Assembly (NCBI RefSeq): GCF_056746865.1
Contig: NZ_CM163382.1
DNA: 64,000 nt
Direction: 5' to 3' (one strand)
A program made the position numbers and the translations under genes. Below are positions 43,338 to 64,000 of this stretch, in pieces (within the stretch, counting starts at the first letter, position 1; every line of letters starts with the position of its first letter). The notes under the pieces are model-generated. The model ran no database searches. It saw only the letters and a list, made by a program, of their open reading frames with translations, and was not told the DNA's origin.

Positions 43338-43360
43338 AAAGGCCCATTCGGGCCTTTTTT
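43338..43360 (+). terminator. Rho-independent terminator after ydeA
   Basis: GGCCC-attc-GGGCC stem followed by TTTTTT. Confidence 0.7.
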
Positions 43361-44024
43361 AGTGGTACGTTTTAATGATTTCCAGGATGCCGTTAATAAT
43401 AAACTGCACCCCCATACATACCAGCAGGAATCCCATCAGACGAGAGATCGCTTCAATGCCCCCCTTACCCACCAGCCGCATAATTGCGCCAGAGCTGCGT
43501 AGACTTCCCCACAAAATAACCGCCACCAGGAAAAAGATCAGCGGCGGCGCAACCATCAGTACCCAATCAGCAAAGGTTGAACTCTGACGCACTGTGGACG
43601 CCGAGCTAATAATCATCGCTATGGTTCCCGGACCGGCGGTACTTGGCATTGCCAGTGGTACAAAAGCAATATTGGCGCTGGGTTCATCTTCCAGCTCTTC
43701 CGACTTGCTTTTCGCTTCCGGTGAATCAATTGCTTTCTGTTGCGGAAAGAGCATTCGAAAACCGATAAACGCGACGATTAAGCCGCCTGCAATTCGCAGA
43801 CCGGGAATCGAAATGCCAAATGTATCCATCACCAGTTGCCCGGCGTAATACGCCACCATCATGATGGCAAAGACGTACACCGAGGCCATCAACGACTGAC
43901 GATTACGTTCGGCACTGTTCATGTTGCCTGCCAGGCCAAGAAATAACGCGACAGTTGTTAATGGGTTAGCTAACGGTAGTAACACCACCAGCCCCAGGCC
44001 AATTGCTTTAAATAAATCTAACAT
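43359..44024 (-). CDS. marC: MarC-family inner-membrane protein
   Basis: 221-aa hydrophobic ORF divergent from marRAB. Confidence 0.85.
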
Positions 44025-44136
44025 TGGTGGTTGTTATCCTGTGTATCTGGGTTATCAGCGAAAAGTATAAGGGGTAAACAACGATAAAGTGTCACTCTTT
44101 AGCTAGCCTTGCATCGCACTGACCAAAACTTGAACC

Positions 44137-44234
44137 GATTTAGCAAAACGTGGCATCGGTCAATTCATTCATTTGACTTATACTTGCCTGGGCAATATTA
44201 TCCCCTGCAACTAATTACTTGCCAGGGCAACTAA
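44137..44234 (+). promoter_or_regulatory. marO: marbox, -35/-10 and two MarR operator palindromes
   Basis: Marbox GATTTAGCAAAACGTGGCAT (44137-44156); -35 TTGACT 44173-44178; MarR site I TACTTGCCTGGGCAATATTA 44181-44200 overlapping -10 TATTAT; site II TACTTGCCAGGGCAACTAA 44216-44234. Confidence 0.85.
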
Positions 44235-44235
44235 T

Positions 44236-44670
44236 GTGAAAAGTACCAGCGATCTGTTCAATGAAATTATTCCATTGGGTCGCTTAATCCATATGGTTAA
44301 TCAGAAGAAAGATCGCCTGCTTAACGAGTATCTGTCTCCGCTGGATATTACCGCGGCACAGTTTAAGGTGCTCTGCTCTATCCGCTGCGCGGCGTGTATT
44401 ACTCCGGTTGAACTGAAAAAAGTGTTATCGGTCGACCTGGGGGCGCTGACCCGTATGCTGGATCGCCTGGTCTGTAAAGGCTGGGTGGAAAGGTTGCCGA
44501 ACCCGAATGACAAGCGCGGCGTACTGGTAAAACTTACCACCAGCGGCGCGGCAATATGTGAACAATGCCATCAATTAGTTGGCCAGGACCTGCACCAAGA
44601 ATTAACAAAAAACCTGACGGCGGACGAAGTGGCAACACTTGAGCATTTGCTTAAGAAAGTCCTGCCGTAA
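44236..44670 (+). CDS. marR: multiple-antibiotic-resistance repressor MarR (GTG start)
   Basis: 144-aa [23 protein letters not shown]…; carries Ser103 and His137. Confidence 0.9.
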
Positions 44671-44689: not shown

Positions 44690-45073
44690 ATGTCCAGACG
44701 CAATACTGACGCTATTACCATTCATAGCATTTTGGACTGGATCGAGGACAACCTGGAATCGCCACTGTCACTGGAGAAAGTGTCAGAGCGTTCGGGTTAC
44801 TCTAAATGGCACCTGCAACGGATGTTTAAAAAAGAAACCGGTCATTCATTAGGCCAATACATCCGCAGCCGTAAGATGACGGAAATCGCGCAAAAGCTGA
44901 AGGAAAGTAACGAGCCGATACTCTATCTGGCAGAACGATATGGCTTCGAGTCGCAACAAACTCTGACCCGAACCTTCAAAAATTACTTTGATGTTCCGCC
45001 GCATAAATACCGGATGACCAATATGCAGGGCGAATCGCGCTTTTTACATCCATTAAATCATTACAACAGCTAG
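44690..45073 (+). CDS. marA: AraC/XylS-family activator MarA
   Basis: 127 aa from [28 protein letters not shown]…. Confidence 0.9.
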
Positions 45074-45104: not shown

Positions 45105-45323
45105 ATGAAACCACTTTTATCCGCAATTGCAGCTGCGCTTATTCTCTTTTCCGCGCAGGGCGTTGCGGAACAAACCACGCAGCAGGTTGTTACTTCCTGT
45201 GCCAATGTCGTGGTTGTTCCCCCATCGCATGAACAACCACCGTTTGATTTAAATCACATGGGTACTGGCAGTGATAAGTCGGATGCGCTCGGCGTGCCCT
45301 ATTATAATCAACACGCTATGTAG
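45105..45323 (+). CDS. marB: periplasmic MarB
   Basis: 72-aa ORF with signal peptide. Confidence 0.85.
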   Translation: MKPLLSAIAAALILFSAQGVAEQTTQQVVTSCANVVVVPPSHEQPPFDLNHMGTGSDKSDALGVPYYNQHAM

Positions 45324-47635: not shown

Positions 47636-47860
47636 TTTAAGTCGAACACAATAAAAATTTAATTCAGCCTTCGTTTAGGTTACCTCTGCTAATATCTTTC
47701 TCATTGAGATGAAAATTAAGGTAAGCGAGGAAACACACCACACCATAAACGGAGGCAAATAATGCTGGGTAGACTGGCCCCCTGAATCTCCAGACAACCA
47801 ATATCACTTAAATAAGTGATAGTCTTAATACTAGTTTTTAGACTAGTCATTGGAGAGCAG

Positions 47861-48226
47861 ATGATTGATGTCTTAGGACCGGAGAAACGCAGACGGCGTA
47901 CTACACAGGAAAAGATCGCTATTGTTCAGCAGAGTTTTGAACCGGGAATGACGGTCTCCCTTGTTGCCCGGCAACACGGTGTGGCAGCCAGCCAGTTATT
48001 TCTCTGGCGCAAGCAATACCAGGAGGGAAGTCTTACTGCTGTGGCCGCAGGAGAGCAGGTCGTTCCTGCCTCTGAACTTGCTGCTGCCATGAAGCAGATT
48101 AAAGAACTCCAGCGCCTGCTCGGCAAAAAAACGATGGAAAATGAACTCCTTAAAGAAGCCGTTGAATACGGGCGTGCAAAAAAGTGGATAGCGCACGCGC
48201 CCTTATTGCCCGGGGATGGGGAGTAA
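47861..48226 (+). CDS. insC: IS2 InsC (OrfA)
   Basis: 121 aa [26 protein letters not shown]… with GGAG RBS. Confidence 0.9.
48178..48184 (+). other. IS2 -1 programmed frameshift heptamer AAAAAAG
   Basis: A6G slippery sequence at the insC/insD overlap. Confidence 0.7.
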
Positions 48227-49089
48227 GCTTAGTCAGCCGTTGTCTCCGGGTGTCGCGTGCGCAGTTGCACGTCATTCTCAGACGAACCGATGACTGGAAA
48301 GATGGTCGCCGCAGCCGTCACTCAGATGATACGGATGTGCTTCTCCGTATACACCATGTTATCGGAGAGCTGCCCACGTATGGTTATCGTCGGGTATGGG
48401 CGCTGCTTCGCAGACAGGCCGAACTTGATGGTATGCCTGCGATCAATGCCAAACGTGTTTACCGGATCATGCGCCAGAATGCGCTGTTGCTTGAGCGAAA
48501 AACCGCTGTACCGCCATCGAAACGGGCACATACTGGCAAAGTGGCCGTGAAAGAAAGCAATCAACGATGGTGCTCTGACGGGTTCGAGTTCCGCTGTGAT
48601 AACGGAGAAAAACTGCGAGTCACGTTCGCGCTGGACTGCTGTGACCGTGAGGCACTGCACTGGGCAGTCACTACGGGCGGCTTCGACAGTGAAACAGTAC
48701 AGGACGTAATGCTGGGAGCGGTGGAACGCCGCTTCGGCAACGAGCTTCCGGCGTCTCCAGTAGAGTGGCTGACGGATAATGGTTCATGCTACCGGGCTAA
48801 TGAAACACGGCAGTTTGCCCGGATGTTGGGGCTTGAACCGAAGAACACGGCGGTGCGGAGTCCGGAGAGTAACGGCATAGCAGAGAGCTTCGTGAAAACG
48901 ATAAAGCGTGACTACATCAGTATCATGCCTAAACCAGACGGGTTAACGGCAGCAAAGAACCTTGCAGAGGCGTTCGAGCATTATAACGAATGGCATCCGC
49001 ATAGTGCACTGGGTTATCGCTCGCCACGGGAATATCTACGGCAGCGGGCCAGTAATGGGTTAAGTGATAACAGGTGTCTGGAAATATAG
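48184..49089 (+). CDS. insD: IS2 InsD (OrfB, DDE transposase)
   Basis: 301-aa ORF overlapping insC in the -1 frame. Confidence 0.9.
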
Positions 49090-49220
49090 GGGCAAATCCA
49101 CTGGGTAATATGAATGTTTTTATGGCCGTACTGGGAATAATTTTATTTTCTGGTTTTCTGGCCGCGTATTTCAGCCACAAATGGGATGACTAATGAACGG
49201 AGATAATCCCTCACCTAACC

Positions 49221-56982: not shown

Positions 56983-58350
56983 TTACAGACTTCTTGAAGG
57001 TTGCGCAGCTGTTACAACACGCGGTTGATCTTCCGCGGCATCTTCCAGTGCACTTAAATCACGGTCTCTCACTTCTGGCATTTTCAGCGCAGAGATTAAA
57101 CCAATCACTGAATATGCCATGATCATAATGGCGATCGGATACCAGGATTCCGTCATGGTGCAGAAAATACCCGCCAGGATAGGACCAAAACCGGAAGCGA
57201 TAAGACCACCAATTTCTTTAGAAATCGCCATCCGGGTAAAGCGGTTTTTACAGCCGAACATTTCTGCCATGGTAATGTTTTCCAGAGCAAATAATCCCAG
57301 CACCGCACAGTTATGAATCACAATCAGTGCAACCATAATGGTGCTCGGGGCATAGCTTTTATCTACGATGATAGAAAGCATTGGCCACGCCAGCACAATC
57401 GCAGAGGTATTCATAATAATATACGGGATCCGGCGACCTATTTTATCGGATAACCAACCAAGGAACGGAATGGTCATAAAGCCGAGAATCGAACTGATCA
57501 TCAATGCATCTGTTGGAATTGCTTTGTTAAACAATAACGTCTGCACTAAATAGCCTGCAAGGAAAGTCTGAATTAAACCGGAGTTACCAGCCTGACCAAA
57601 ACGCAGCCCTGTTGCCAGCCAGAAGGATTTGCTCTGGAACATGCTACCAGCAGGTGCAGGTTTTGCTGTCGGTTGGTTGCTGTCGTTAACCTTCTCAAAG
57701 ACCGGGCTTTCTTTCAGATTCATACGCAACCAGATAGCAAAGACCATCACGACAACGCTCGCCAGGAACGGTATACGCCATCCCCACGCAAGCAGTTCCT
57801 CTTTACTGAGAATGAAGAACATAAAGGCCCAGATTGCCGTTGCGCTCAAGGTTCCGCAGTTAGTCCCCATAGCAACAAATGAGGAGATAATTCCGCGCTT
57901 ACCTTTTGGTGCATATTCCGCCAGCATCGTGCCGGCACCGGAAATTTCCGCGCCTGCCCCCAGCCCCTGAATAATACGCAGCGTCACCAGCAAAATTGGC
58001 GCAAACACACCAATTTGTGCATAGGTCGGCAGCACACCAATTAAGGTAGTACAGATCCCCATCATAGTGATGGTAATAAAGAGCACTTTTTTACGCCCGA
58101 TTCTGTCGCCCATTTTGCCGAAAATAAATGCTCCGACAATACGCGCCACATAACCTGCACCGTAGGTTCCCATTGCCAGAATTAACGCCATTGCCGTTGA
58201 TGATTCAGGAAAAAATATTTCATGAAACACTAACGCTGCGCCGAGCGAATATAACTGGAAATCCATAAATTCAAGCGCAGTGCCCAGCCATCCCGATACT
58301 GCTGCTTTCACCAAATCCTTAGTGCTTCTTTCGTGTTTTTCTATTGTCAT
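56983..58350 (-). CDS. ydfJ: MFS metabolite:H+ symporter, apparently intact
   Basis: 455-aa uninterrupted 12-TM-like ORF. Confidence 0.85.
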   Translation of the reverse strand: MTIEKHERSTKDLVKAAVSGWLGTALEFMDFQLYSLGAALVFHEIFFPESSTAMALILAMGTYGAGYVARIVGAFIFGKMGDRIGRKKVLFITITMMGICTTLIGVLPTYAQIGVFAPILLVTLRIIQGLGAGAEISGAGTMLAEYAPKGKRGIISSFVAMGTNCGTLSATAIWAFMFFILSKEELLAWGWRIPFLASVVVMVFAIWLRMNLKESPVFEKVNDSNQPTAKPAPAGSMFQSKSFWLATGLRFGQAGNSGLIQTFLAGYLVQTLLFNKAIPTDALMISSILGFMTIPFLGWLSDKIGRRIPYIIMNTSAIVLAWPMLSIIVDKSYAPSTIMVALIVIHNCAVLGLFALENITMAEMFGCKNRFTRMAISKEIGGLIASGFGPILAGIFCTMTESWYPIAIMIMAYSVIGLISALKMPEVRDRDLSALEDAAEDQPRVVTAAQPSRSL

Positions 58351-58407
58351 AATGGTTATCTCTAAAAAAGAGGTAAGATGCGTACTACTTACTCGCCGTT
58401 ATTGGTA

Positions 58408-59427
58408 TTATTCAGAAAAAGTGAGTAAGACTTTGCAGCAATGCTTTTGATCCTGTTCAAATAAACTAATGGCATCAGCAACATGCTGGAAATCAAACGT
58501 ATGGGTAATTAGTTTTTCTGGTTTAATTAACCCTTTACTTAACCAGTCGATAACGACCGGGAATTTATTTGCATTTAAGCGTGAAGAGAAAATAGAGAGT
58601 TCTTTTCCGGTAATTCCTTGCTGAATCACTTCAGACGGTTCACTGGAGAAGCCCATCAATACAATACGTGCCGCTGGAGAAGCCAGCGTTACGGCTTCTT
58701 TCAGGATTGAAGGATGACAAGCCGCATCGATAATTAATGTCGGCTTTATGCCTTTTTCAGCGAAAATCTCGCCAAGCGGTGTCTGGCTGTTATTAATCGC
58801 CCAGTCTGCCCCGCTCTCTTTCGCTTTTTCCAGTCGTTCATCAATGCGATCGGCAACAATCACATTCTTAACGTTATAGACGCCTTTTAATACCTGAACG
58901 ATCGTCAGGCCGATTGGACCGGCACCGTAAACCAGAACGGTATCATTTTCAGTCGGTTGACCATGACCGGTAACGTTAGCCGCAATGGTAAAAGGTTCGA
59001 TCATCACCGCATATTGATCGGCCACTGCTTCAGGAATTTTCCACGCATTTTTTGCCGGCACCACGGCATATTCACTGAAACCACCGTCAGCGTGCACACC
59101 TAATACAGCCAGTGTCGTACAAACGTTCGGCTTACCTATAGAGCACGGATAGCAATGCCCACAGCTGACCACCGGATCGACAGCAACGCGTTCACCGACT
59201 CTGGCGCTTTCCACGCCTTCACCCACTGCATCAATGACGCCAAAGAATTCATGACCAATGACGCGCGGATATTTCGCAAAAGGATTATGCCCACGATAAA
59301 TATGGCTATCTGAACCACAAATTCCGGCAAGTTTCACTTTTACTCGTACTTCACCCGCTGACGGGGTGGGTATTTCGCGTTCGATAATTGCCAGTTGATT
59401 CGGTTTTTCAATTAAAATGCTTTTCAT
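58408..59427 (-). CDS. rspB: zinc-dependent alcohol-dehydrogenase-family oxidoreductase
   Basis: 339 aa from MKSILIEKPNQLAIIEREIP…; GHE zinc motif. Confidence 0.85.
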   Translation of the reverse strand: MKSILIEKPNQLAIIEREIPTPSAGEVRVKVKLAGICGSDSHIYRGHNPFAKYPRVIGHEFFGVIDAVGEGVESARVGERVAVDPVVSCGHCYPCSIGKPNVCTTLAVLGVHADGGFSEYAVVPAKNAWKIPEAVADQYAVMIEPFTIAANVTGHGQPTENDTVLVYGAGPIGLTIVQVLKGVYNVKNVIVADRIDERLEKAKESGADWAINNSQTPLGEIFAEKGIKPTLIIDAACHPSILKEAVTLASPAARIVLMGFSSEPSEVIQQGITGKELSIFSSRLNANKFPVVIDWLSKGLIKPEKLITHTFDFQHVADAISLFEQDQKHCCKVLLTFSE

Positions 59428-59438
59428 TATCTTACTCC

Positions 59439-60653
59439 TTACCAGTTCCACAGCGTGCCATCTTCCAGACGTGCGACTGGCAGATAAGCAGGTTCATAGG
59501 GATATTTCGCCGCCAGCTTTTCATCGAATTCGATGCCAAGACCCGGTTTGTCTCCCGGATGCATATAGCCGTTATCGAAAGTCCAGTTGTGCGGGAAGAC
59601 TTCAAGCATTTGTTCGGAATAACCCATGTATTCCTGGACACCGAAATTGGGGACCCACAGATCAAAGTGCAGCGCCGCAGCCATGCAGACTGGTGACAAA
59701 TCGGAAGGACCGTGTGAGCCAGTACGTACCTGATACAACGAAGCAAAATCGGCAATCCGGCGCATACCGGTAATTCCGCCTGCATGGGTCAGCGTGGTGC
59801 GGATATAATCGATAAGTTGCTCTTCAATCAGTTGCTTGCAGTCCCAGATGCTGTTGAAGACTTCACCCACCGCGATGGGTGTGACGGTATGTTGGCGAAT
59901 GAGACGGAAGCATTCCTGGTTTTCCGCAGGCGTCGGGTCTTCCATCCAGAACATGCGATAATCTTCAATGCTTTTACCAAAGCGCGCCGCTTCAATAGGC
60001 GTTAAGCGATGGTGCATGTCATGCAGCAAATGTTCATTAAAACCAAACTTGTTACGTACCGCGTCAAACAATTTCGGCATGAAATCGAGGTATTTCTCCG
60101 TCGACCACAACTGCTCTTCCGGCCACTGTCCTTTGGTTGCGGGTTCATAAGCCAGACCTTTGCCTTTCGACATGCCGTAGGTGGTTTTCATACCAGGGAT
60201 TCCGCACTGCACGCGGATGGCTTTGAATCCCAGCTCCTGATGACGGGCATAATCATCCAGAGCTTCATCAATACTGTGACCGGTGGTATGGCAATAAACC
60301 ATCACCCCTTCACGAGACGCGCCGCCGAGTAACTGGTAAAGCGGCATGTTGGCAGCTTTGGCTTTAATATCCCACAGCGCCATATCAACCGCTGAAATGG
60401 CCGACATCGTCACCGGACCGCGACGCCAGTAAGCACCTTTATAGAAAAACTGCCAGATATCTTCGATACGGTGTGCATCGCGACCAATAAGCTGCGGACA
60501 AAGGTGATCCTGCAAATAAGAGGCCACGGAAAGCTCACGTCCATTGAGGGTGGCATCCCCAAGGCCCGTAATACCGTCCTCAGTGGTGATTTTTAATGTG
60601 ACGAAATTACGCCCCGGACAGGTAACAAAAACTTCAGCCTTTACGATCTTCAT
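59439..60653 (-). CDS. rspA: enolase-superfamily mannonate-dehydratase-like starvation-sensing protein
   Basis: 404 aa from [22 protein letters not shown]…. Confidence 0.85.
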
Positions 60654-60858
60654 GTTCGATTCCTTGCATCGCTTGTCGTGATGCATGAAATCTACGCAAC
60701 TGAGCTACTACCATACAAGTATGAAGATCGAAAAAAGCCGGAGTGATCACAAAAAAAGGCGTATATTTGCGCCGTGAATGGTTGACAAAAGATGAAATAG
60801 AATACCTTTTGTCAGCTGACACTTCCTTGTATCTTATTGATAAAATGGATTTATGTCC

Positions 60859-61185
60859 TTACGCGCGCCCCCAGCCCGCAACAATGATCAACATGCCGCA
60901 AAGCGCAATCAACGCCCCCGTCCAGTCATAAAGACTCAGTTTCACGCCATCCACAACGCGCAGCCACATCAACGCCGTGCAGACATAAACGCCACCATAA
61001 GCCGCGTAAACACGCCCACTCGCCGCAGGATGCAACGTTAACAACCAGACAAACAGTGCCAGAGAAATCCCCGCCGGAAGCAACAGCCAGATACTGGCGT
61101 TTCGTTTTAACCACAACCAGGGCAGAAAGCATCCAATAATTTCACACAGCGCAGTAGCAAAAAATAGTAACGTTGTTTTAATCAT
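60859..61185 (-). CDS. ynfA: small inner-membrane protein (UPF0060)
   Basis: 108 aa from [23 protein letters not shown]…. Confidence 0.8.
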
Positions 61186-61319
61186 CTTTGTCACTTATTG
61201 ACATCATGTATAGTTATAGGACGACATAATATCATCAATATAAACATCCTCCTGGTACGTTTTGCGTTCGCAGTGGATGGTGTAGAATCACCTTTAATCA
61301 TTCATACAGGGAATGAATT

Positions 61320-61661
61320 ATGAAAATTACTCTCAGCAAACGAATTGGCCTGCTCGCTTTTCTGCTGCCTTGCGCACTGGCATTGAGCACAACTGTTCAT
61401 GCCGAAACTAACAAACTGGTGATTGAGTCTGGCGACAGTGCGCAAAGCCGCCAGCACGCCGCTATGGAAAAAGAGCAATGGAATGACACGCGCAATCTGC
61501 GCCAGAAAGTGAATAAACGCACTGAAAAAGAGTGGGATAAAGCCGACGCCGCTTTTGATAACCGCGATAAATGTGAGCAAAGCGCCAACATCAATGCCTA
61601 CTGGGAGCCAAATACTTTGCGCTGCCTGGACCGTCGAACTGGCCGCGTTATTACCCCCTAA
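61320..61661 (+). CDS. ynfB: secreted protein YnfB (UPF0482)
   Basis: 113-aa ORF with signal peptide. Confidence 0.8.
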
Positions 61662-61695
61662 CCTGTTATTGATTTAAGGAATGTAAGGACACGTT

Positions 61696-62256
61696 ATGCC
61701 AAGCGCCCACAGTGTTAAGCTACGCCCGCTGGAGCGTGAAGATTTACGCTATGTACATCAACTCGACAATAACGCCAGTGTGATGCGTTACTGGTTTGAG
61801 GAACCCTACGAAGCCTTTGTTGAACTCTCTGATCTGTACGATAAGCATATTCACGATCAGAGCGAACGGCGCTTTGTGGTGGAATGTGACGGCGAAAAAG
61901 CCGGTCTGGTGGAGCTGGTGGAAATTAACCATGTTCATCGCCGCGCAGAATTTCAGATAATTATCTCCCCGGAATATCAGGGGAAAGGTCTGGCAACGCG
62001 TGCCGCAAAATTAGCAATGGACTATGGCTTCACCGTTCTCAATCTCTATAAGCTGTATCTGATCGTCGATAAAGAGAATGAAAAAGCGATACACATTTAC
62101 CGCAAGCTTGGCTTTACGGTTGAAGGTGAATTGATGCATGAGTTCTTTATTAATGGTCAATATCGGAATGCCATTCGCATGTGCATATTCCAGCATCAGT
62201 ATCTGGCAGAGCACAAAACACCGGGTCAGACTCTCCTGAAGCCGACCGCACAATAG
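61696..62256 (+). CDS. speG: spermidine N1-acetyltransferase
   Basis: 186-aa GNAT-fold [26 protein letters not shown]…. Confidence 0.9.
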
Positions 62257-62258
62257 CA

Positions 62259-62969
62259 TTAATAATAATCGATAGTATTTTTGATGGTGTAAACCCGTTC
62301 GATGGCGGGTTTTACTCCTTCATCAACAATGATTAGCTGACAGTCCACCGGATTGGCGTGACTGTCATATTCACAGCTCTGTTTTACATTACCAACTCTT
62401 TGATTATTCAGTATAGTAACCGCTGTGTAATCTAATTTTTTGATCGGGTCCGTTGATGGCGTGGCGCTAACAGATAATGTTTTGTCGTGACTTTTCGTGG
62501 TTTTACCCAGCGGATACCCCTGATCATCATAGCGATATTCCATCTGCATCTGTTTGCTGCTGGCTTTAATCACAAAGCCATTATCATCGGTTTCCCAACT
62601 CACCCCGGCAGAAGGTAATTCTGCTAGCTGGCATTTTCCCTGCAAACGAACTCTTTTCTCCAGTGTCTGGGCATCACGGTAATAATTGGCGTCCAGTACC
62701 AGGGCAACCACGGTATTATTTTCCAGATCCAGTAATTCGAGTGAATCAAAACAGCCTTCTTCCGACAAAGTCCCCGAAACACGTTTCGTCACTTCACCTT
62801 GCTCATCCATTAATGTCTGAGTGAAATCTTTTACCGGACCACGCAGCGGATCAAAATCGAATTCATTAGAGAAACTGGCCATCTCAGGGGTAAATGAAAG
62901 TGTTACCTCTGTTCGGTCACATCCTGTGAGGAATATCGCGAGTAAGCATGGCAGTAATTTGTATTTCAC
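62259..62969 (-). CDS. ynfC: lipoprotein YnfC (UPF0257), GTG start
   Basis: 236 aa from (GTG)KYKLLPCLLAIFLTGC… with lipobox LTGC; ORF track has 12 extra N-terminal codons. Confidence 0.8.
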   Translation of the reverse strand: MKYKLLPCLLAIFLTGCDRTEVTLSFTPEMASFSNEFDFDPLRGPVKDFTQTLMDEQGEVTKRVSGTLSEEGCFDSLELLDLENNTVVALVLDANYYRDAQTLEKRVRLQGKCQLAELPSAGVSWETDDNGFVIKASSKQMQMEYRYDDQGYPLGKTTKSHDKTLSVSATPSTDPIKKLDYTAVTILNNQRVGNVKQSCEYDSHANPVDCQLIIVDEGVKPAIERVYTIKNTIDYY

Positions 62970-63073
62970 AACAGTCACCAGAGAGTAGAGATGATTCTCA
63001 ATCATAGTAGCAAATACAGTACTTTACACGTTAAATGCTATGCTTAAAGAAGTTATCTTCGCGTAAGGAGCTT

Positions 63074-63382
63074 ATGATGAAACTCTCAACCTGCTGTGCC
63101 GCGCTTCTGCTCGCCCTCGCCTCACCCGCGGTACTCGCCGCGCCGGGATCCTGTGAGCGCATACAGAGCGATATATCACAGCGCATTATCAATAATGGCG
63201 TACCCGAAAGCAGCTTCACGTTAAGTATTGTACCCAATGACCAGGTTGATCAGCCTGATTCCCAGGTCGTCGGGCATTGCGCTAATGATACGCATAAAAT
63301 TCTCTACACCCGCACCACCAGCGGTAACGTCTCTGCTCCCGCGCAGTCTACCCAGGATGGCGCGCCTGCCGAACCGCAGTAA
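63074..63382 (+). CDS. ynfD: secreted DUF1161-family protein
   Basis: about 102 aa from MMKLSTCCAALLLALASPAVLA…. Confidence 0.8.
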   Translation: MMKLSTCCAALLLALASPAVLAAPGSCERIQSDISQRIINNGVPESSFTLSIVPNDQVDQPDSQVVGHCANDTHKILYTRTTSGNVSAPAQSTQDGAPAEPQ

Positions 63383-63467
63383 CACATTATCGACTGAACG
63401 CCGGATACGACACATCCGGCGATTTGAACATACAACATAATCCCACCTTATTACTCATACCCTTCTA

Positions 63468-63481
63468 TTGATATGGATTAA
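63468..63481. promoter_or_regulatory. FNR-like site TTGAT-atgg-ATTAA upstream of ynfE
   Basis: Read from sequence; 9 of 10 match to FNR consensus, about 100 bp upstream of ynfE ATG. Confidence 0.3.
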
Positions 63482-63580
63482 TAATTCTTAACCCAAAATG
63501 GGTAGACTCCCTCTATTGTTAGCGCGCTAAATATTCAATATATAAACTTTTATATAACGATAAAGATCAGGGAGTGAGTT

Positions 63581-64000
63581 ATGTCCAAAAATGAACAAAT
63601 GGTGGGCATCAGCCGCAGAACACTCGTTAAATCTACCGCGATAGGTTCTCTGGCGCTGGCTGCAGGCGGTTTTTCTTTACCGTTCACCCTGCGCAGTGCA
63701 GCGGCAGCGGTACAGCAGGCCAGCGAGAAAGTGGTCTGGGGTGCCTGTTCCGTCAACTGTGGTAGCCGCTGTGCACTTCGTCTGCATGTTAAAGATAATG
63801 AAGTGACCTGGGTGGAAACTGACAACACCGGCAACGACGAGTATGGCAATCATCAAGTACGTGCCTGTTTGCGCGGTCGCTCCATCCGTCGGCGTATTAA
63901 TCATCCCGATCGCTTGAATTACCCAATGAAACGCGTGGGCAAACGCGGCGAAGGCAAATTCGAACGGATTAGCTGGGATGAAGCCCTGGATACTATCGCC
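63581..64000 (+). CDS. ynfE: 5' part of Tat-exported molybdopterin oxidoreductase (DMSO/selenate reductase family catalytic subunit); runs off window end
   Basis: ATG at 63581 with GGAG RBS; twin-arginine signal (…ISRRTLVKSTAIGSLALAAGG…) then Cys cluster CSVNCGSRCALR; no stop before window end. Confidence 0.85.
   Translation, partial: MSKNEQMVGISRRTLVKSTAIGSLALAAGGFSLPFTLRSAAAAVQQASEKVVWGACSVNCGSRCALRLHVKDNEVTWVETDNTGNDEYGNHQVRACLRGRSIRRRINHPDRLNYPMKRVGKRGEGKFERISWDEALDTIA

Follow-up and report, generated by a model that had tools for sequence, protein, structure and literature searches.

The MarR protein of Escherichia coli K-12 is a dimeric winged-helix repressor whose targets in marO are two TTGCC-N2-GGCAA palindromes, one of which overlaps the promoter between the -35 and -10 elements while the other lies just upstream of the marR start. 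Basal expression of marRAB is thereby held low, and with it the AcrAB-TolC efflux that MarA drives, until an inducer frees the repressor. Essentially all of the structural and biochemical work has been done with this K-12 protein, which has glycine at position 103 and tyrosine at position 137. The marR lesions that truly derepress the mar system, and that are found in clinical isolates, are in-frame deletions of the wing, frameshifts, and substitutions in the DNA-binding domain. The window, by which we mean the whole 64-kb stretch of DNA that was analyzed, encodes a MarR protein with serine at position 103 and histidine at position 137. This difference from K-12 is already known, and it is K-12 that is the odd one out. 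In all probability, the window carries an intact wild-type marRAB operon with a common natural allele of MarR, and the presence of Ser/His instead of Gly/Tyr is a neutral polymorphism.

The marR gene is the first gene of marR-marA-marB and is divergent from marC, as judged by the open reading frames, the family matches of MarA and MarB, and the annotation of strain 118UI (Table 1). Its product is identical to RefSeq WP_000843419.1, which is annotated as marR in strain 118UI. It scores 320.1 bits against the NCBIfam MarR equivalog NF008565 (cut-off 240), with residues 1-144 of 144 covered, the Pfam winged-helix MarR domain PF01047 occupies residues 38-96 (E=1.8e-18), and the solved MarR structures match it by sequence with E=3.6e-92. 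WP_000843419.1 is the common E. coli MarR, being also the MarR of IAI1, STEC17-190, and PSS-11, and between the window gene and the IAI1-type marR genes of those three strains there are 9-10 synonymous base differences. The K-12 protein (b1530, NP_416047; PDB 1JGS, 3VOE, 5H3R) resembles that of the window in its length of 144 amino acids, its GTG start, and 142 of 144 residues, and the two loci are alike in operator, marbox, promoter, and the marC / marRAB / eamA neighborhood. Unlike the window protein, it has Gly103 and Tyr137, and these are the only two amino acid differences; the genes differ in addition by five synonymous bases, in codons 62, 63, 64, 69, and 70. No truncation, frameshift, or in-frame deletion was found in the window MarR, the 144-amino acid open reading frame of which is collinear with that of K-12.

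The first-pass annotation of this DNA had read Ser103 and His137 from the translation and had given Gly and Tyr for K-12. The first point is confirmed by the codons AGC and CAT, and since it is read straight from two codons, chance does not come into it. The second is confirmed by alignment of the whole mar locus of K-12 MG1655 to the window, in which the K-12 gene (NC_000913.3 1619120-1619554) encodes Gly103 and Tyr137, and by the wild-type MarR chains in the PDB (3voe and others), which have the same two residues. K-12 does not share Ser103/His137, and the claimed difference stands.

Table 1. Features of the mar locus, with positions numbered from the first letter of the window
Feature	Position	Strand	Description	Basis
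marC	43359..44024	-	divergent from marO	ORF list and 118UI annotation
marbox	44137..44156	+	GATTTAGCAAAACGTGGCAT; MarA/SoxS/Rob activator site, 16 bp upstream of -35	identical to K-12
marRAB core promoter	44173..44201	+	-35 TTGACT 44173-44178, 17-bp spacer, -10 TATTAT 44196-44201	identical to K-12
marO operator site I core	44182..44195	+	ACTTGCCTGGGCAA; palindrome TTGCC-N2-GGCAA, between -35 and -10	identical to K-12
marO operator site II core	44217..44230	+	ACTTGCCAGGGCAA; ends 5 bp before the GTG start	identical to K-12
marR CDS	44236..44670	+	marRAB repressor; GTG start, 144 aa + stop	ORF list and translation, NF008565, PF01047
marR codon 103	44542..44544	+	AGC (Ser); K-12 GGC (Gly)	translation and K-12 alignment
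marR codon 137	44644..44646	+	CAT (His); K-12 TAT (Tyr)	translation and K-12 alignment
marA	44690..45073	+	Mar regulon activator	NCBIfam NF008564, 294 bits
marB	45105..45323	+		NCBIfam NF007508, 140 bits

The control region is as well preserved as the annotation had stated of the marO palindromes and the marbox. Between positions 44124 and 44420, a segment that covers the marbox, the -35 and -10 elements, and both operator palindromes, there are zero differences between the window and K-12, and a search of this segment for operator or promoter mutations relative to K-12 found none. The operator motif ACTTGCCNGGGCAA occurs exactly twice in the 64-kb window (at 44182 and 44217), compared with 0.01 occurrences expected by chance. 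We take these two sites to be the MarR operators I and II reportedly described by Martin & Rosner 1995, we likewise take 44137-44156 to be the marbox reportedly described by Martin et al. 1996, and TTGACT and TATTAT are presumably the marRAB promoter hexamers, an assignment made from the sequence together with published work. The MarA protein is identical to that of K-12, its gene having one synonymous base difference at 44803.

A dimer of the window MarR sitting on both palindromes would block the promoter and the marR start and would hold MarA low until induction. Judging from the 142/144 identity to the crystallized K-12 protein, the window MarR probably binds marO, represses marRAB, and is released by inducers. 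Sequence identity, conservation, and published surveys together indicate that the S103/H137 form of MarR should repress normally, and nothing in the mar sequence of the window points to a Mar phenotype. Both expectations would follow from S103/H137 being neutral and ancestral.

Other parts of the mar locus contain further differences from K-12. An accessory Fis site presumably lies in the marC-marR intergenic region near 44082-44123. The differences in that region, at 44082, 44119, and 44123, precede the marbox by 14-55 bp. A comparison of nine Escherichia loci shows C at 44082 and C at 44119 in the window/118UI type alone, and A at 44123 in K-12 alone. The MarB protein has four changes relative to K-12 (S5L, P27Q, Q42H, and H44Q), compared with two in MarR and none in MarA, and MarB H44Q and S5L are listed as frequent in clinical strains (PMC8597741).

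MarR orthologs were sought with a degenerate DNA pattern of a 12-residue MarR peptide in one genome per GTDB species, which gave 46 loci. In 37 distinct full-length Enterobacteriaceae MarR orthologs, 95 of 143 positions are invariant, and position 103 ranks 4th (S/D/H/E) and position 137 ranks 6th (H/Y/L) in variability among the 143. The window MarR keeps C80 and all 95 of the family-invariant positions. Relative to K-12, no conserved residue of its DNA-binding or dimerization surface is replaced, the only changes being at the variable positions 103 and 137. In an AlphaFold2 model of the window MarR (mean pLDDT 80.5), which was used for secondary structure only, the elements are a helix at 68-80, strands at 84-89 and 92-100, a helix at 102-123, and a C-terminal helix at 129-142; on the basis of the model, helix 68-80 is taken to be the recognition helix and the two strands are taken to be the wing. 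Residue 103 comes second in the modeled helix 102-123, in its first turn and just past the wing strand 92-100, and residue 137 is inside the C-terminal helix. Both residues are outside the PF01047 winged-helix core (38-96).

The pair S103/H137 is present in four of four divergent Escherichia lineages (E. whittamii, sp. E1V33, sp. MOD1-EC7003, and the divergent 'E. coli' SCPM-O-B-8794), the mar loci of which have 89-95% nucleotide identity to K-12. Elsewhere, residue 103 is His in Citrobacter and Asp or Glu in Enterobacter, Salmonella, and Leclercia. Residue 137 is His, Tyr, or Leu among the orthologs, with Tyr found also in Salmonella and some Citrobacter. Glycine at position 103 was sought in the 37 distinct orthologs outside E. 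coli and was found in none of them (0/37). The only Gly103/Tyr137 match of the species-wide scan was a contig of a 'Caldithrix' sp. metagenome bin, which over 1701 bases has 100% identity to the mar locus of K-12 and is almost certainly laboratory K-12 contamination. S103/H137 is best read as the ancestral Escherichia state, with G103/Y137 derived in the lineage that contains K-12, a polarity that is based on the four divergent lineages, the pattern scan having recovered neither E. fergusonii nor E. albertii. Because tyrosine is again found at 137 in Salmonella and part of Citrobacter, the polarity is less firm for position 137 than for position 103, and the ancestral residue at 137 is more doubtful at greater depth in the family.

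The frequency of each allele was estimated by searching 5,426 complete RefSeq E. coli genomes, in which about 5,415 records bear marR, with exact 57-mers centered on each variant base. At codon 103, the window-type S103 57-mer had 3009 exact matches (5414 records matched), the IAI1-type S103 57-mer, which has the synonymous change TGT>TGC in codon 108, had 1127 (5403 records matched), and the K-12-type G103 57-mer had 1187 (5351 records matched). At codon 137, there were 4192 exact matches to the window-type H137 57-mer and 1184 to the K-12-type Y137 57-mer, with 5416 records matched in each case. The window and K-12 counts at codon 103 (3009 + 1187) are well below 5414, and example loci show that the gap is the IAI1-type class, which is also S103. 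The S103 total is 4136 (3009 + 1127), or at least 76% of the approximately 5,415 records, and H137 is present in approximately 77%; RefSeq complete genomes over-sample clinical isolates, and 76-77% is a database frequency, not a population frequency. The K-12 alleles G103 and Y137 account for approximately 22% each, and G103/Y137 appears to be a derived, lineage-restricted state. Both S103 and H137 were read directly in IAI1, STEC17-190, PSS-11, ST131 strain 4224, and 118UI, and an O157:H7 genome has an exact match to both the S103 and H137 57-mers.

It had been proposed in the first-pass annotation that the pair is a lineage marker, and this part of its interpretation fails. S103/H137 spans IAI1, O157:H7, ST131, the ST69-like window strain, and four other Escherichia lineages. 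Because it is the majority state in E. coli and is present in other Escherichia lineages, it marks no particular lineage, and the two residues are called 'substitutions' because K-12 serves as the reference.

In the complete-genome set, 5 of 5428 mar-locus matches are on records labeled as plasmids. Two records, NZ_CP068155.1 and NZ_CM128582.1, have a mar-locus match that spans approximately 2065 bp, compared with the usual 1341 bp, and the annotation of these longer matches includes genes for a RelE/ParE toxin and a helix-turn-helix protein, which suggests an insertion of approximately 0.7 kb.

The near-equal 57-mer totals imply, at the level of totals and not of per-genome haplotypes, that G103 and Y137 usually travel together. 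We see a small chance that the common S103/H137 MarR differs measurably from the K-12 minority protein in basal repression or inducer sensitivity; if it does, values obtained with the K-12 protein would not hold for most E. coli. Another proposal would be that positions 103 and 137 form a co-adapted pair, in which Gly103 and Tyr137 arose together in the K-12-type lineage and compensate for each other, with the haplotypes differing subtly in repression or inducer sensitivity. The K-12-type counts (1187 and 1184) imply the tight association that such a pair would have, and in a large protein collection the mixed haplotypes are scarcer (G-H on 758 contigs and S-Y on 515) than the main haplotypes S-H and G-Y, which are on at least 1000 contigs each. 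However, the two codons are 102 bp apart, and linkage on a clonal frame explains their association without epistasis. The mixed haplotypes, on hundreds of contigs each, are not rare, the orthologs mix the residues of the two positions freely in 10 combinations (D, H, E, or S with H, Y, or L), and the two residues are in different helices of the model. Co-adaptation of the two positions is very unlikely as an explanation of what we observe.

It has also been argued that G103S/Y137H is a partial loss of function, with weaker repression leading to more MarA and AcrAB-TolC and to fluoroquinolone or tetracycline resistance. Several genome reports favor such an effect: the pair is stated to confer or contribute to resistance (PMC11298459), it is placed among mutations known to induce AcrAB-TolC overexpression (PMC7546912), and an 8-fold rise in acrA has been tied to marR changes (PMC8976530). 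These papers use K-12 as the comparator and contain no allele-specific test. In contrast, the pair had no significant association with any level of levofloxacin resistance in a study that lists it in isolates with levofloxacin MICs from 0.016 to 16 ug/mL (PMC4317672), so that it is present even at the MIC of 0.016 ug/mL, and another paper describes it as lacking a demonstrated ability to increase efflux by itself (PMC8597741). Among Norwegian quinolone-resistant E. coli it is the commonest MarR change (PMC7082582), and the earlier remark that the pair is often reported in clinical isolates agrees with these published reports. Positions 103 and 137 are absent from the main text of a study of 36 isogenic marR alleles (PMC5890708), and no isogenic allele swap at 103/137 was found in the accessible literature.

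The distribution of the allele and the nature of the two sites also speak against a partial loss of function. Few sites in the family vary as much as 103 and 137, both of which fall outside the winged-helix core. About three in four complete E. coli genomes have the allele, as do four other Escherichia lineages; a majority form that also occurs in other Escherichia cannot have arisen in clinical isolates through selection for resistance. We regard a partial loss of function as highly improbable, and given the database frequencies, the reading of the pair as a resistance mutation is untenable. The annotation's view that the pair is a neutral polymorphism, and not evidence of mar derepression, is supported by its frequency, its ancestry, the weak constraint on the two sites, the intact marO and MarA, and the literature.

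Derepressing marR lesions share with the window allele the gene and the type of clinical survey in which they are found. They differ from it in that they truncate MarR or alter the winged-helix region, whereas the window gene is full length and is changed outside the core. In the marR gene of ST131 strain 4224, which was isolated from blood, 33 bp are deleted in frame and wing residues 86-96 are lost, and it is plausible that this deletion, unlike the window allele, is a true loss-of-function allele.

That Ser103 and His137 are sequencing or assembly errors in the window has a vanishingly small probability and is refuted by the exact S103 and H137 57-mers in 3009 and 4192 independent records and by the 100% identity of 118UI over 23.8 kb around the locus.

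The scientific weight of a normal mar locus is small. What the locus illustrates is that, with K-12 as the reference, a common and apparently ancestral MarR allele has been repeatedly reported as 'G103S/Y137H resistance mutations'; such calls recur because genomes are compared with K-12. Given the frequency of approximately 76-77% and the occurrence of the pair in four Escherichia lineages, G103S/Y137H calls should be ignored in sequence-based resistance prediction.

The complete genome closest to the window is that of strain 118UI, a urinary isolate listed in a published table as ST69, phylogroup D (PMC8900328), which is 100% identical over window positions 24000-47771. The window stops matching 118UI past position 58273 (58274-64000), where 118UI has a truncated ydfJ and a Qin-like prophage remnant. 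Because the match ends there, the window strain is a close relative of 118UI and not the same strain, and it has other prophage content. An IS2 element of 1331 bp occupies window positions 47770-49100 and interrupts mgtS, which encodes a small protein, after codon 2. The element has terminal inverted repeats, an insC-like open reading frame (47816-48226), and an insD-like open reading frame (48184-49089), and it is flanked by a 5-bp target duplication, CTGGG, at 47765-47769 and 49101-49105. The insertion, which is absent from the otherwise identical 118UI, cuts the mgtS reading frame to MLGRLAP*.
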